This document shows positions 6,587 through 30,591 of a stretch of DNA of 51,754 nucleotides, piece after piece. The number at the start of each line of letters is the position of its first letter. Positions within the stretch are counted from its first letter, which is position 1. Origin of the DNA: Escherichia virus TH30; the sequence record MT446404.1. The stretch is one strand, 5' to 3'. The notes under the pieces were generated by a model. That model was not told the DNA's origin, searched no databases, and was given only the letters and a program-made list of their open reading frames with translations. Position numbers and translations under genes: made by a program.

Positions 6587-7329
6587 TGGTTTTTCCTGTC
6601 AAGTGATGCGACCGCGCAGCCGCCGAAATCTAATTCATTTTTGTCGCCAAATCGTAATTTGCAGGCAGTTACCGTTCCTGCGCATACGTCCTGTGATGGA
6701 TCAGTTACTGGATTGTTGTCTTTGTCAAACATCCGACTTCCATTATAACCACACCCATTTCCGCTACGATACCATCCACGCTGCGCCCAAAAACAAACGC
6801 TCTGAGTGACTCGCGGTGGAATCATGATTCCGTCCATGTCGTATGGTGAGGTAAGGTCAAATCGCGCAACATTCTGATCCACGAAGTTAGGTCGCTCAAC
6901 GTAGTAAACGTATTTCCTGAAGTCACCAGGGGAAACGTCGCCGTTGCTGCCGAGCATTTCTCGTGATGTTATCCAGATGGTCACCTTGGCCTGCATCATG
7001 CCGTTGTAGGACCGAATAAGTGCCGATACTCGACTATCAAGGTTAGATAAGGTTAATTGTGGCTTTCCAGCCTTTCCGTTACCGTTTAGGTCAATTCCTG
7101 ATATGCCGAAAGGACGAGCGCCATATTCATTTCCCTGAAAGGTGATCGTTTTTGGCTGAAGGCTTCCGCCTGGCTGAGTTGCTGCGAGAATCTCCTCCGG
7201 CGTAAACTGGATGTTCTCGTTGTGGAATCGGTAGACCTGCGCGCCGAATTTCGTTCCGTCAACGTCAATTAGCGTCATGATCTCACCAGGGAACAGCCCC
7301 TGCAATACGTTTTCAAACTTAGGCGTCAT
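6583..7329 (-). CDS. minor tail protein (lambda L-like, 248 aa)
   Basis: Position between M-like and K-like genes; C-terminal Cys cluster. Confidence 0.6.
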   Translation of the reverse strand: MTPKFENVLQGLFPGEIMTLIDVDGTKFGAQVYRFHNENIQFTPEEILAATQPGGSLQPKTITFQGNEYGARPFGISGIDLNGNGKAGKPQLTLSNLDSRVSALIRSYNGMMQAKVTIWITSREMLGSNGDVSPGDFRKYVYYVERPNFVDQNVARFDLTSPYDMDGIMIPPRVTQSVCFWAQRGWYRSGNGCGYNGSRMFDKDNNPVTDPSQDVCAGTVTACKLRFGDKNELDFGGCAVASLDRKNQ

Positions 7330-27531: not shown

Positions 27532-27626
27532 TCCACCACAACCAGGAAGATTATCACCAGAAACAAAAGCACCCAGGATAGCCCGACAAGAAGCAATTGC
27601 AGCACGTCAACTAATTTGAACTTCAT
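27528..27626 (-). CDS. 32-aa hydrophobic micro-protein (MKFKLVDVLQLLLVGLSWVLLFLVIIFLVVVE)
   Basis: Below the ORF-track size cut-off; ATGA overlap with upstream stop; stop TAG inside the motif. Confidence 0.35.
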   Translation of the reverse strand: MKFKLVDVLQLLLVGLSWVLLFLVIIFLVVVE

Positions 27627-27838
27627 AGCACCTCAACCTCATCCTCTGCAAATGGCCAGTCGCCAGGAGCCATTCCATTCCTGCTTAGCGCCGGAAGGAA
27701 GTCAGCGTCAACCATGTAAAGGGTTTCGAACTCACCTTCATACCTCCAGGCCGTCGCCACCACTGGCAGCTTGCTTGAGTCAACGCCTCGATAAGGTGAC
27801 TTGATGATGCGGATCTTAATCATTTCTTCATTGTTCAT
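27623..27838 (-). CDS. small acidic protein (about 71 aa from MNNEEM)
   Basis: ORF, trimmed start. Confidence 0.35.
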   Translation of the reverse strand: MNNEEMIKIRIIKSPYRGVDSSKLPVVATAWRYEGEFETLYMVDADFLPALSRNGMAPGDWPFAEDEVEVL

Positions 27839-28034
27839 TGCGGCGCTCCATGTAGTCAGCCATTTTGATAAGGTGCTCGCCCATTGCGCGGACGGTAGCC
27901 GGATCTTGCATCGGGAATGCTCCAGAGTCATCATCAATCACGATTTCGACAGTGACATTATCGACATTGGTCATCGTGTCAATCCAGCAATCGTCATCGT
28001 CCATATCCTGGAAGCGCTTGCGATCTGTGATCAT
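27828..28034 (-). CDS. small acidic protein (68 aa), distant relative of the tandem family
   Basis: C-terminal helix ATVRAMGEHLIKMADYMER resembles the family C-terminus. Confidence 0.35.
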   Translation of the reverse strand: MITDRKRFQDMDDDDCWIDTMTNVDNVTVEIVIDDDSGAFPMQDPATVRAMGEHLIKMADYMERRNEQ

Positions 28035-28255
28035 AAAACCCCCTTCTCAGCGCGGCGGGCCGCTTCCATCAGGTGACATGCCAGTTGGCGCGCCTGGTCA
28101 GGCGTGTAAAGCATGTAACTGCTTGGGTATGACTCATCATGAGGATTGAAGTCAAGTCGTACCTTGAAAGTCACACGATCATTATTGTGAATCTTCACAG
28201 CCTCAATCTCGGCCTGCTCGTTGTAGTCGTCTGCGATGCGTACCTTGGTACTCAT
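28031..28255 (-). CDS. small acidic protein, paralogue family member 4 (74 aa)
   Basis: C-terminus YTPDQARQLACHLMEAARRAEKGVL. Confidence 0.5.
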   Translation of the reverse strand: MSTKVRIADDYNEQAEIEAVKIHNNDRVTFKVRLDFNPHDESYPSSYMLYTPDQARQLACHLMEAARRAEKGVL

Positions 28256-28321
28256 AATTTACCCCTTGGTTGATTGTTTCACTTCAATGAGTGCACTATA
28301 GCAAATGCACTCACGTCAGTT

Positions 28322-28338
28322 TTAACAAAAAGTGCTAT
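28322..28338 (-). promoter_or_regulatory. conserved 17-bp motif, upstream stop TAG embedded
   Basis: Stop of 28335..28622 is the TAG of the motif. Confidence 0.55.
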
Positions 28339-28622
28339 CGCTCATCTTCCCTGGAGCATCCTTTGCCGCAACCATGGCGACCAACTTCCACGATGCCGAC
28401 TCCGCTTAAGCCGATGTATTCCTGACCAGTGTCCTTATCGGTGATGACGTATATCGCTCTGACGTTCTCGTATGCCAGGTCATCCCTGAACTCCTGAATC
28501 TTCACAACCTGGACGCGATCGTTTACGTTTACTGGCATCATCTGCCGAGCGTCGGAGCTAACCCTTGTATCTGAGTCACAACCAGCCAGCGCCAGGGCTG
28601 CTAATAAAATTAGTTTCTTCAT
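28335..28622 (-). CDS. lipoprotein (95 aa), candidate superinfection-exclusion protein
   Basis: Signal plus lipobox MKKLILLAALALAGC. Confidence 0.5.
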   Translation of the reverse strand: MKKLILLAALALAGCDSDTRVSSDARQMMPVNVNDRVQVVKIQEFRDDLAYENVRAIYVITDKDTGQEYIGLSGVGIVEVGRHGCGKGCSREDER

Positions 28623-28819
28623 TCGATAATCCTCAATAGTTTCTCTTTGCGATGCGGTTCGCCGGACTTATTCAGCCAGTAGCGCGCCTGGGAAAGCTGG
28701 CTGGCATGGGCCACTGTCACCCACCAGAATAATGCTACCCGCTTTTGGACTGCATACCACTTGACCGGATGACCTAAGGCGGTCGTCGTGTCAACCAATA
28801 CGATCCTGAATTTATTCAT
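28619..28819 (-). CDS. hypothetical basic protein (about 66 aa from MNKFRIV)
   Basis: ORF trimmed to the ATG overlapping the upstream stop. Confidence 0.3.
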   Translation of the reverse strand: MNKFRIVLVDTTTALGHPVKWYAVQKRVALFWWVTVAHASQLSQARYWLNKSGEPHRKEKLLRIIE

Positions 28820-29030
28820 CGACTTCTGCCTCCACTTCATCAGCCGCCTTGATGAGTGCCGCCGCCAGTTCACGCGCCTGCTCTGCTGTGTAGGTCATAC
28901 CTGTACCATCCGCCCGAGAATCCGGTAAAAGGTCCAGGTGCACGCGCTTACGCATCTTGCCAAACGGAACCTTGATTACTGAGATTTCTGTTTCCTGATT
29001 CCAGGATGAGTTAACTCGAATATCTCTCAT
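28812..29030 (-). CDS. small acidic protein, paralogue family member 3 (72 aa)
   Basis: C-terminus YTAEQARELAAALIKAADEVEAE. Confidence 0.5.
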   Translation of the reverse strand: MRDIRVNSSWNQETEISVIKVPFGKMRKRVHLDLLPDSRADGTGMTYTAEQARELAAALIKAADEVEAEVDE

Positions 29031-29224
29031 TGCTTTTCCGCCTCTTCCGCTACTTTAATGAGCGCCTCCGCCAACTTACGTGCTTGTTCCGGCGTGTAAT
29101 GAGCTATGGCAAAGCTATCCCCGTCGCTGTCTGTTTCAGTAAGACTTACCACGCCGTCATAATAGATTGAGGTTGACACCTCGGTGCTTACGCCTAAAAA
29201 ATCTTCGAAGATTACAATCTCCAT
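29027..29224 (-). CDS. small acidic protein, paralogue family member 2 (65 aa)
   Basis: C-terminus HYTPEQARKLAEALIKVAEEAEKQ. Confidence 0.5.
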   Translation of the reverse strand: MEIVIFEDFLGVSTEVSTSIYYDGVVSLTETDSDGDSFAIAHYTPEQARKLAEALIKVAEEAEKQ

Positions 29225-29226
29225 AA

Positions 29227-29439
29227 TTATTTCTTCTCCGCTTCATCTGCTGCCAGGATTAACGCTGCCGCTAATTTGCGCGCGTCATCAGGTGTATAGT
29301 GCATCATGCTTACATCGCAATCGTCAGGATCGAAGTCAATGGAGACTACAGCCTTGACTACTCCAGTCCGATTGGTTAGCACGCTAACCTCAGCGGCATC
29401 ACCAACCACATCCTCAATGCGTAAAATTTCCATAATCAT
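29227..29439 (-). CDS. small acidic protein, paralogue family member 1 (70 aa)
   Basis: C-terminus HYTPDDARKLAAALILAADEAEKK. Confidence 0.5.
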   Translation of the reverse strand: MIMEILRIEDVVGDAAEVSVLTNRTGVVKAVVSIDFDPDDCDVSMMHYTPDDARKLAAALILAADEAEKK

Positions 29440-29490
29440 TTCCTCTTTGTTGTCGATAGGGTAATCATAGCTGACTACCCGATTTATTGT

Positions 29491-29507
29491 TTAGCAATTC
29501 GTGCTAT
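29491..29507 (-). promoter_or_regulatory. conserved 17-bp motif, upstream stop TAG embedded
   Basis: Stop of 29504..30055 is the TAG of the motif. Confidence 0.55.
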
Positions 29508-30055
29508 TCACCGTTCAGGAGAGCTTTCGCTTTCCGGTAGAACTGGATGGCCTTCTCCACCTCATCGGCATCATAGCCATGGATTGTTGTCTGCGGTGGC
29601 ACGTAGTGAGAACGTCGCGCGTCGGATCGGTATTGGTTGCACCATCTGTACACGCCTCGTTCATCCATTCCCACCAGGGCCGGATGCACATAAATCTTAT
29701 CGCCAATGAGGCAAACAATTCCCGCCTCCTGTAGTGCTGGGATGATGTTATTTGTCAGGTCATGCATGATCCCTTCGCGACCGACGAATGGCTGGACCTT
29801 TCGGATTGCCTCGTATAGAGATCGAATGCCAGCAACTCCCTTCCCATTGCAGCACTGGCGGCTAATCCTGCTCACTACGACGCCGTATTTGTAGCTCAAC
29901 TTGACGCACAGCATCTCTTCGGCGCTGGGCCAGAACTTGAATGATTGACGGTATCCATTGGCATTGATTGCCACACGAAGTGGCGGCAGGTTATCTTGCC
30001 TGGCGACTTCCATCACCTTTTCATCGGTCAATTTATCTTCGTCGAAATTAAACAT
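29504..30055 (-). CDS. 183-aa protein sharing N- and C-terminal segments with the 527-aa P-loop protein at 35589..37172
   Basis: MFNFDEDKL...DNLPPLRVAINANGYRQS and GIRSLYEAIRKVQPF...CLIGDKIYVHP match both ends of the larger protein. Confidence 0.55.
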   Translation of the reverse strand: MFNFDEDKLTDEKVMEVARQDNLPPLRVAINANGYRQSFKFWPSAEEMLCVKLSYKYGVVVSRISRQCCNGKGVAGIRSLYEAIRKVQPFVGREGIMHDLTNNIIPALQEAGIVCLIGDKIYVHPALVGMDERGVYRWCNQYRSDARRSHYVPPQTTIHGYDADEVEKAIQFYRKAKALLNGE

Positions 30056-30591
30056 TAGTTAGTATCCTTAATCATTTCATGGTAACGGGCCAGGGCAATG
30101 AGAGCGCCTTCTTTCTGCTCTCCTTTCAGGTCGATGACGTTTGGTGTGATCTTGAGCAGACGAGCCTTGAACCTTTCAATAGCTGCCGCTTCTTTCTCAA
30201 CATCGGCAGTCTTTCGTTTGGTTGGCTTAAGTGCCCCAGGCTCAAGCTGGATTAACAGGTTCTTATCAGCGCCGTCGCCATCCGCCTTGCGTGCTACAGT
30301 TTCCTCTCCTGACGCCAGCCAGATAAAGCGATGCTTGACGTGCATATCAATATCCCGAAGCTCCTGCATTCTTGCTGCGGTGTTATAGATGTATGAACTT
30401 TTAAGCCCTGCGATCTCACGCCCAGGAGTCATGTACTCCCCCGTCACCTCGTCCAGTATTTCATCTGGATAATCATGACCATTGACCAGGTTGAATATCT
30501 TGCGAACCGGAACTACGCACAGCTTCTTGTCGGACTTAATTGCCTGGCGTACCATCTCGCGAATCACATCACCCAATGTTACCTTATCCAT
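30055..30591 (-). CDS. hypothetical protein (178 aa), first gene of the leftward early block
   Basis: ORF only. Confidence 0.45.
   Translation of the reverse strand: MDKVTLGDVIREMVRQAIKSDKKLCVVPVRKIFNLVNGHDYPDEILDEVTGEYMTPGREIAGLKSSYIYNTAARMQELRDIDMHVKHRFIWLASGEETVARKADGDGADKNLLIQLEPGALKPTKRKTADVEKEAAAIERFKARLLKITPNVIDLKGEQKEGALIALARYHEMIKDTN

Follow-up and report, generated by a model that had tools for sequence, protein, structure and literature searches.

T1-like phages serve as models and as candidates for therapy, and about half of their genes are without known function (PMC13164509). The only characterised protein with detectable, though very distant, similarity to the genes described here is Gp4.5 of phage T7, a Lon inhibitor and anti-toxin-antitoxin/abortive-infection factor (PMC8230891; bioRxiv 10.1101/2024.10.10.617714). 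Gp4.5 inhibits the Lon protease and thereby keeps a toxin-antitoxin abortive-infection system from firing. A second small phage protein, AcrIIA22, is a tiny PC4-like anti-defence factor (anti-CRISPR) from a hypervariable phage region (PMC8545432). The concept of accessory-region gene clusters has been set out for phage genomes (bioRxiv 10.1101/2023.04.06.535777). Here we describe a set of small genes in Escherichia virus TH30, a virulent T1-like phage (Drexlerviridae, Nouzillyvirus-like). The window is the whole stretch of DNA analysed, 51,754 nucleotides (MT446404.1).

Organization of the array

The five open reading frames of the original prediction are all present on the minus strand. Paralogue A had been given a start at 29439, and here the protein-database gene callers disagree and use 29433 (MEIL..., 68 aa). 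The paralogues, named A to E in the direction of transcription, and the neighbouring elements are:

29440-29500, minus strand: conserved 61-nt leader 5' of the first array gene, with a sigma-70-like site and the ribosome-binding site GAGGAA
29227-29433, minus strand: paralogue A, 68 aa (70 aa from 29439); net charge -8; PHROG 13316, E=2.4e-14; dN/dS 0.19-0.35
29027-29224, minus strand: paralogue B, 65 aa; net charge -10; PHROG 13316, E=1.6e-24
28812-29030, minus strand: paralogue C, 72 aa; net charge -4; PHROG 13316, E=1.4e-7; dN/dS 0.04-0.32
28619-28813, minus strand: 64-aa gene unrelated to the family; PHROG 2010 (unknown function)
28335-28622, minus strand: lipoprotein gene unrelated to the family; lipobox LALAGC; synteny cluster 10
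28287-28314, minus strand: hairpin/palindrome with an 11-bp stem, 32-59 nt upstream of D, no T-run after it
28031-28255, minus strand: paralogue D, 74 aa; net charge -2; PHROG 13316, E=1.7e-3 (marginal); dN/dS 0.07-0.44
27828-28034, minus strand: paralogue E, 68 aa; net charge -10; PHROG 16871, E=4.6e-12 over residues 6-67; dN/dS 0.04-0.23

The genes had been taken for one tandem array with four adjacent members. A-B-C and D-E are indeed contiguous blocks, but the run is interrupted by the two unrelated genes between them. The 64-aa gene probably starts at the internal ATG at 28813 and is kept at the equivalent position in CJ19, TH21 and ETEP102 (synteny cluster 9). The lipoprotein gives a weak match to PHROG 1119 Cor (E=0.0018), and its matches to entry-exclusion proteins (TrbK/VirB7) are at the level of the signal peptide only. 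The array lies directly behind a promoter-like leader and beside a Cor-like lipoprotein.

A Shine-Dalgarno-like sequence precedes each of the five reading frames, and stop and start codons overlap (ATGA) at the gene pairs C/B and E/D. The array genes are the third to fifth and the eighth and ninth in a leftward operon of small genes, which starts from a divergent AT-rich promoter region at ~30.8-31.3 kb, holds genes for a polynucleotide kinase and a dNMP kinase and continues into the terminase genes. Judged by operon position alone, the array genes would be expressed early. Orthologues showed dN/dS values of 0.04-0.44 across 34 pairs, and the array genes are therefore selected coding genes. 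Purifying selection prevails, without visible sign of accelerated evolution. For a role in an arms race, this pattern is neutral to mildly unfavourable.

The sigma-70-like site in the leader (TAAACA-18-TATGAT, 29493-29464) is a promoter-like prediction. The leader was found again in 12 further loci (Nouzillyvirus, Braunvirinae and metagenomic contigs) with only 2-6 substitutions, although the first genes behind it diverge from each other. For some phages the leader is read as part of the protein, extending its N-terminus (MDRVVGYDYPIDNNEE...). The hairpin in front of D has a folding energy of -22.5 kcal/mol (z=-2.8). Its core, TGAGTGCA-N10-TGCACTCA, recurs unaltered just upstream of D in three other loci (L002, L011 and L013) and is also present in CJ19 (L008). 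An Rfam search of the array region gave no match.

Paralogy and predicted structure

That the genes are paralogues was confirmed by BLASTP against the 708 six-frame open reading frames of the window. The values lie far above chance (A with B 1.6e-13, A with C 7e-10, A with D 4e-9, C with D 3e-8; best unrelated reading frame 0.03), and paralogues A to D are related along their full length (about 1e-13 to 4e-8). A family HMM run over the window matched precisely the five array genes, with E=2e-29 for D, which carries a helix variant of its own, LACHLMEAARRAEKGVL. The original prediction had described a shared C-terminal helix behind divergent N-termini. The helix is shared, but similarity is not limited to it: in a five-sequence search the strand region by itself links A with B, C and D (1e-3 to 2e-4). 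Conserved residues are R5, E15, V18, G24, V30, D33, D37, M44, Y46 and T47. The loops and the remaining strand region vary among paralogues, in contrast to a constant helix and a few constant strand residues. The DNA of the helix motif is 72-79% identical between paralogues. Recent gene conversion as the source of the shared helix was rejected because synonymous differences are abundant. Comparison of the copies indicates that the helix motif is kept at the protein level.

The proteins had been characterised as small and acidic, which fits A, B and E well; C and D are only mildly acidic. In 120 close homologues net charge averages -6 and is negative for 97% of them. Paralogue E had been proposed as a possible distant fifth member. 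A profile lacking E-type sequences gives it only 9 bits, and hhalign reports 74% probability over 59 columns. Together with the same predicted order of structural elements, this suggests that E is probably a distant member of the family. The DUF600/YezG-like label that the E-type gene carries in the CJ19 and 50EP records was not adopted, a Pfam scan of E at E<=1 being empty.

AlphaFold models were made independently for A (pLDDT 78; four strands, then a helix at residues 48-67) and for E (E-only input, pLDDT 82; four strands, then a helix), and the order strand-strand-strand-strand-helix is identical. Each product is predicted to form an antiparallel sheet of four strands, against which one long C-terminal helix packs. 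The models have the half-domain topology of the PC4-like/PUR/Whirly superfold (four strands and a helix). Homology to PC4/PUR proteins was rejected: the fold match seen for the A-type model was not repeated with the independent E model, and the likeness is therefore kept as one of topology only. Gp54 of phage Bas11, a small Drexlerviridae protein that triggers CapRel, was likewise set aside. Its crystal structure is a six-stranded beta-barrel with no helix (PMC11578894), a fold different from the sheet-plus-helix models. A PDB sequence search with the family profile returned nothing under E=0.1.

The family had not been recognised in the original prediction, and this holds: PHROG, Pfam, NCBIfam and PADLOC assign no function. 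PHROG 13316 (matched by A to D) and 16871 (matched by E) are families of unknown function, and NCBIfam and PADLOC gave no match for any of the five proteins. Pfam PF21848 (DUF6907) scored 16.5 bits for A and 16.6 bits for C, below its cut-off of 26 bits. Among 113 distant relatives, 30 matched it with E<=0.01, the best at 1e-7. No paper emerged from literature searches on DUF6907 or on the motif peptides.

Distribution and recombination of the family

Copy number ranges from 0 to 5 among related phages. There are five copies in TH30, five in CJ19 (one pseudogenised), four in TH21, and two each in ETEP102 and Bas03. In T1, the first 12 kb, which correspond to the array operon, hold no member. 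A copy 86% identical to A is present in the 145-kb Vequintavirinae phage A5-4. LTH01 and the 44-kb phage EC3-1 carry more members, and tblastn gave a weaker match in A7_1. Vequintavirinae and a third phage type thus also have family members, and these sequence matches indicate that members moved between unrelated phage groups. Searches of 5,426 E. coli genomes and of 72,556 plasmids gave no match; on this basis the family is specific to virulent phages. Paralogue B is absent from all other phage loci compared; B-type relatives are found in metagenomes (P0077, P0118 and P0129). An IMG/VR scan gave two loci only, and a search with distant members gave ten metagenomic proteins; of these, one comes from a contig resembling an actinophage and another has ordinary bacterial neighbours, so that this search was uninformative. 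No family sequence occurs in the 39 supplementary files of the accessory-gene study cited above.

Chimeric C/D and A/D genes correspond to deletions between tandem copies at the YTPxQAR motif, and two-repeat relatives of the family proteins exist. E directly follows D in all seven phages or contigs that have a canonical D gene. It also follows both traced D-helix chimeras (L019 and L020), where the deletions retained the downstream gene, and no E lies behind the D-like helix in L021. A D-E heterodimer, considered on the ground of this co-occurrence, was rejected. Adjacency alone explains the pairing: the chimera deletions merely keep the downstream E, so the co-occurrence is not independent evidence.

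Similarity to T7 Gp4.5

Paralogue C is the member nearest to T7 Gp4.5 and the top match of the Gp4.5 profile in the window. Against PF17574 (TA_inhibitor), C reached 13.9 bits (E=0.058) and its orthologue P0040 14.7 bits (E=0.031, residues 9-67), both below the gathering cut-off of 27 bits; A, B, D and E had no PF17574 match in the Pfam scan. When the family profile was aligned to the Gp4.5 sequence, hhalign gave a probability of 87-90% (E about 2-4e-6, 59-61 columns), the Pfam-level match being sub-threshold. Profile against profile the value was 78%, and a broader family profile weakened it to 53%. Native Gp4.5 scored 34.7 with the family profile, compared with a maximum of 14.2 for 150 full shuffles and of 18.8 for 346 unrelated reading frames of the window. 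Shuffling the strand region only gave 25.7 +/- 1.3, and none of 150 such shuffles attained the native score. The reverse search was marginal, with 25.2 for C and a background reaching up to 19.9. The Ala-rich helix motif contributes about three quarters of the alignment score, and motifs of this helix type also yield sub-threshold matches to several unrelated Pfam families of unknown function.

Proposed role and alternative explanations

The array had been proposed as a candidate set of anti-defence or host-takeover genes. This stands in part: the proteins are small and mostly acidic, and their genes lie at the operon head, occur in 0-5 copies, recombine, are mobile, are absent from the E. coli genomes and plasmids searched and have distant similarity to Gp4.5. 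The accelerated evolution that might accompany such a role is not seen. An anti-defence or host-interference role is plausible on these sequence features. The array holds five diverged copies of one small-protein gene. They occupy a variable stretch close to the promoter of the leftward, presumably early operon, and phages have gained and lost such copies, fused them and passed them to one another. Concretely, we propose, as a tentative model somewhat short of probable, that the products would bind host proteins and blunt functions that limit infection, with T7 Gp4.5 as the concrete example. The helix and core, being conserved, may serve as a scaffold and possibly also for dimerisation or docking. 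Target specificity would be set by the sheet surface, which is variable and acidic, so that separate paralogues could cover separate host targets or alleles.

The acidic composition also bears on whether the partner would be protein or nucleic acid. The predicted four strands and helix would suit PC4/PUR/Whirly-type half-domains, which tend to pair and could dimerise and bind single-stranded DNA or RNA in recombination, replication or transcription, as for the PC4 homologue of phage T5. A nucleic-acid-binding sheet surface is, however, not supported by net charges of -2 to -10 in the window proteins and by the prevalence of negative charge among the homologues, and we regard this explanation as very improbable. 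Binding of host proteins rather than nucleic acid appears the better fit. Phage proteins could also be the partners, if the gene products left the host alone and were small regulators, adaptors or chaperones serving phage replication, the timing of transcription or assembly. The operon shared with phage metabolic and terminase genes, the strong purifying selection, and the conserved leader and hairpin, which suggest regulated expression, would all agree with this. Yet T1 lacks a member in the region examined and close relatives carry 1-5 copies in varied combinations, so a core phage function is unlikely, and lone copies work in unrelated phage backgrounds. A programme of the phage's own is thus an unlikely purpose, if one to be kept in mind.

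The lipoprotein gene between C and D could point to competition among phages, in which family and lipoprotein would jointly cause superinfection exclusion or interfere with co-infecting phages or satellites. Its weak Cor/entry-exclusion likeness and its synteny with the family in several phages speak for such a role, which we nevertheless consider improbable: the family proteins lack both a signal peptide and a membrane segment, and Bas01, Bas03, A5-4 and EC3-1 have family members but no lipoprotein. A bolder variant of host-protein binding, for which we see only a slim chance, would make the proteins modular adaptors or anti-adaptors. Docking on a single conserved host hub (Lon, or another AAA+ protease or ATPase), as has been proposed for Gp4.5, would fall to the invariant helix, and interchangeable sheets would occlude or recruit different substrates. 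A single phage might in this way silence a number of toxin-antitoxin or abortive-infection systems that proteases trigger, and new sheet-helix combinations would naturally arise from recombination at the YTPxQAR junction.

Comparison with known systems

The tentative model of host-protein binding gives a well-defined, selected and mobile set of small proteins a concrete new hypothesis, that of distant Gp4.5-like inhibitors. Like the family members, Gp4.5 is a small protein of a virulent coliphage in which a helix comes after an N-terminal part rich in strands, and it is non-essential. Its helix begins with a cap motif of like kind (MTLTDEQALRLVNALTKAA compared with M.YTPEQARKLAAALIKAA). In contrast, Gp4.5 homologues are basic (+1 to +10, mean net charge +5.4) where the TH30 family is acidic, and they exceed the family proteins by about 20 residues, having an additional helix at the C-terminus; Gp4.5 is single-copy in T7. 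Given the opposite net charge and the extra helix, a common target is unlikely, and the charge difference argues against an interface identical to that of Gp4.5 with Lon. AcrIIA22 is a nickase and lacks the helix, and the acidic character of the TH30 family does not suit nucleic-acid binding. The DUF6907 proteins (with sub-threshold DUF7739 and DUF6360) are likewise small, with strands followed by a 'TPxQARxLAxxL' helix, but the DUF6907 model is longer (116 positions).

If the Gp4.5 link is true, the only known Lon-directed anti-toxin-antitoxin strategy would extend from T7-like phages to Drexlerviridae and Vequintavirinae, and the array would illustrate the diversification of such inhibitors by tandem duplication and domain shuffling. 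If it is false, the family would be an ordinary accessory gene set. In genome organization the array resembles anti-CRISPR loci and the small class I/II genes of T7, which are likewise clustered small, variable and horizontally exchanged genes with conserved flanks near early promoters. It differs from the accessory-region clusters described for phages in that several of the TH30 cluster genes are paralogues of one another.

Four paralogues and a probable fifth in a split array

All five predicted genes, A (29227-29433), B (29027-29224), C (28812-29030), D (28031-28255) and E (27828-28034), are present on the minus strand, each with a ribosome-binding site, and stop and start codons overlap in two pairs. 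When the window's 708 six-frame ORFs were all searched by BLAST, A matched B at 1.6e-13, C at 7e-10 and D at 4e-9, and C matched D at 3e-8; unrelated ORFs reached no better than 0.03. A family HMM matched exactly A-E. Paralogy is thus confirmed, but the array is not continuous as originally proposed: two genes, one of PHROG 2010 and one for a lipoprotein, stand between A-B-C and D-E.

Variation within the family is greatest in the loops and over a large part of the strands. In the helix, A51, R52, L54, A55, L58, I59, A61, A62 and E66 change little or not at all, and positions 53, 60, 63 and 67 vary. Similarity is not confined to the helix: strand-region residues R5, E15, V18, G24, V30, D33 and D37 are conserved as well. 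At the DNA level the copies share just 72-79% identity in the motif, so the common helix is attributed to selection on the protein and not to recent gene conversion. For every lineage dN/dS was 0.04-0.44 (orthologues from five phages).

E is the weak point of the paralogy case. It scores only 9 bits with a profile built without E-type sequences, but hhalign gives 74% over 59 columns, and an AlphaFold model from E-type sequences only (pLDDT 82) has four strands and a C-terminal helix, as in the A model (pLDDT 78). E is therefore probably a distant family member. A 104-aa ORF (27623-27937, minus strand) overlaps E in another frame. Its orthologues in CJ19, TH21 and the contig L019 are 72 aa long and point to ~27835 as the true start, a few codons before E ends.

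As predicted, the proteins are acidic (net charge A -8, B -10, C -4, D -2, E -10; mean -6 over 120 homologues). The predicted fold, we conclude, is a generic sheet-plus-helix sandwich of PC4-like topology (PMC7549692); this topology does not establish homology with nucleic-acid binders, and the acidic charge speaks against such a function.

Operon setting of the array

A-E lie within a long minus-strand operon that starts at an AT-rich divergent promoter region (~30.8-31.3 kb) and contains ~25 small genes, polynucleotide kinase, dNMP kinase and, last, the terminase genes (21.6-19.5 kb). Its counterpart in T1 occupies the genome's left end and lies partly within the terminal repeat. The segment 30800-31300 (GC about 0.44) separates the leftward operon from the rightward one and carries several promoter-like sites on both strands; early divergent transcription probably starts mainly here. 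The family genes are called early here from their position in this operon. The slot of the array is fixed, two conserved ~180-aa genes and then a leader preceding it.

29504-30591, minus strand: two ~180-aa operon-head genes, one Pfam DUF7174 (2e-44), the other PHROG 7327
29440-29500, minus strand: 61-nt leader upstream of the array, with sigma-70-like site and ribosome-binding site
28335-28622, minus strand: 95-aa lipoprotein (MKKLILLAALALAGC...) embedded between C and D
28287-28314, minus strand: stable hairpin (palindrome), 11-bp stem, -22.5 kcal/mol, z=-2.8, 32-59 nt upstream of D

Both head genes are kept in all family-bearing Drexlerviridae regions compared and are absent from T1; DUF7174 also occurs in L019 and L022. 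The central residues 59-128 of the PHROG 7327 protein resemble the C-terminal end of helicase family PHROG 2373 (1.4e-22). The leader differs by 2-6 substitutions in 12 other loci, a conservation far above that of the genes it precedes. Some metagenomic phages translate it, so that various family members begin with an extra N-terminal stretch (MDRVVGYDYPIDNNEE...). Three loci (L002, L011, L013) have the identical hairpin core immediately ahead of their D gene, and the core is present in CJ19 too. No T-run follows the hairpin, which may serve as an operator, as a site of processing or as an atypical terminator. The embedded lipoprotein, syntenic in CJ19, TH21 and ETEP102, bears a weak resemblance to entry-exclusion lipoproteins and to Cor, a protein of superinfection exclusion (PHROG 1119, E=0.0018).

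Copy number and recombination

Profile searches recovered 364 family proteins at 90% clustering, which fall into 113 clusters at 50% identity; almost all have 55-95 residues. The window is a mosaic of stretches 85-91% identical to the T1-like Nouzillyvirus coliphages (Drexlerviridae) TH21, CJ19, PH1062 and P817.

Family gene copies per phage or contig
Window: 5
CJ19: 5 (first has stop at codon 4)
PH1062: 5
TH21: 4
IMG/VR contig: 4
P817: 3
Veterinaerplatzvirus T145P1: 3
ETEP102: 2
Bas03: 2
Bas01: 1
T1, first 12 kb: 0

In CJ19 the annotation has just a 49-aa remnant of the first array gene (6947-7120 region), so this phage is losing a family member. A number of database entries are chimeric, combining the strands of one paralogue with the helix of another; their contigs show that they arose when sequence between tandem copies was deleted at the conserved YTPxQAR junction (for example A2-[C/D]-E in L019 and A2'-[A/D]-E in L020). 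The family is also present in Vequintavirinae: the copy in A5-4 shares 86% identity with A, LTH01 has a member, and A7_1 gave a weaker tblastn match. A further occurrence is in the unrelated 44-kb phage EC3-1. Complete E. coli genomes and plasmids gave no match. A D-type member 65% identical to D was found in MG065688.1, an unverified "Campylobacter phage A110b" record labelled as a phage of Campylobacter jejuni and classified in Drexlerviridae (Braunvirinae); the host label looks doubtful.

Similarity to T7 Gp4.5 and possible function

The family had not been recognised originally, and A-D fall into PHROG 13316 and E into 16871, both function-unknown. Pfam matches of the window proteins were sub-threshold only (DUF6907, DUF7739, DUF6360, TA_inhibitor); DUF6907 was matched by 30 of 113 distant relatives (best 1e-7). 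The TA_inhibitor match pointed to T7 Gp4.5 (PF17574). By hhalign the family profile matched it with 87-90% probability (E about 2-4e-6; 59-61 columns across strands and helix), a 23-member Gp4.5 alignment with 78%, and the broad 113-member profile gave 53%. Full shuffles of Gp4.5 scored at most 14.2 (native 34.7), shuffles confined to its strand region 25.7 +/- 1.3 (0/150 reaching the native score), and 346 unrelated window ORFs at best 18.8. In the reverse search, with the Gp4.5 profile over 351 ORFs, C ranked first and A, B and D were in the top six, at marginal scores; a C-type orthologue matched PF17574 over residues 9-67 (E=0.031). The similarity is thus reproducible and goes beyond the helix motif, yet it stays below the family threshold.

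The best-supported reading, still tentative, partly upholds the proposed anti-defence or host-takeover role: accessory small proteins would bind host proteins and impede host functions limiting infection, the conserved helix acting as a scaffold and the variable sheet surfaces being diversified through duplication and shuffling. The Gp4.5 similarity favours it; its sub-threshold level and the opposite charge of Gp4.5 weigh against it. A regulatory or chaperone role internal to the phage is unlikely, weakened by the patchy distribution. Phage-phage exclusion, exerted jointly with the embedded lipoprotein, we consider improbable, and nucleic-acid binding of the PC4 kind more so, as the proteins are acidic and the fold match was not reproducible.

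A host-directed role would have a precedent in Gp4.5, which reportedly neutralises the abortive-infection system sanaTA by inhibiting Lon (PMC8230891), and which is conditionally important on CcdAB strains and a weak counter to RADAR (bioRxiv 10.1101/2024.10.10.617714). Because Gp4.5 homologues are basic (mean +5.4, against -6 here) and carry an extra C-terminal helix, a shared target surface is unlikely. What is new and testable is the link to Gp4.5 and the mechanism of recombination; the family itself is already catalogued, as function-unknown, and is of the kind of phage accessory small-protein clusters.
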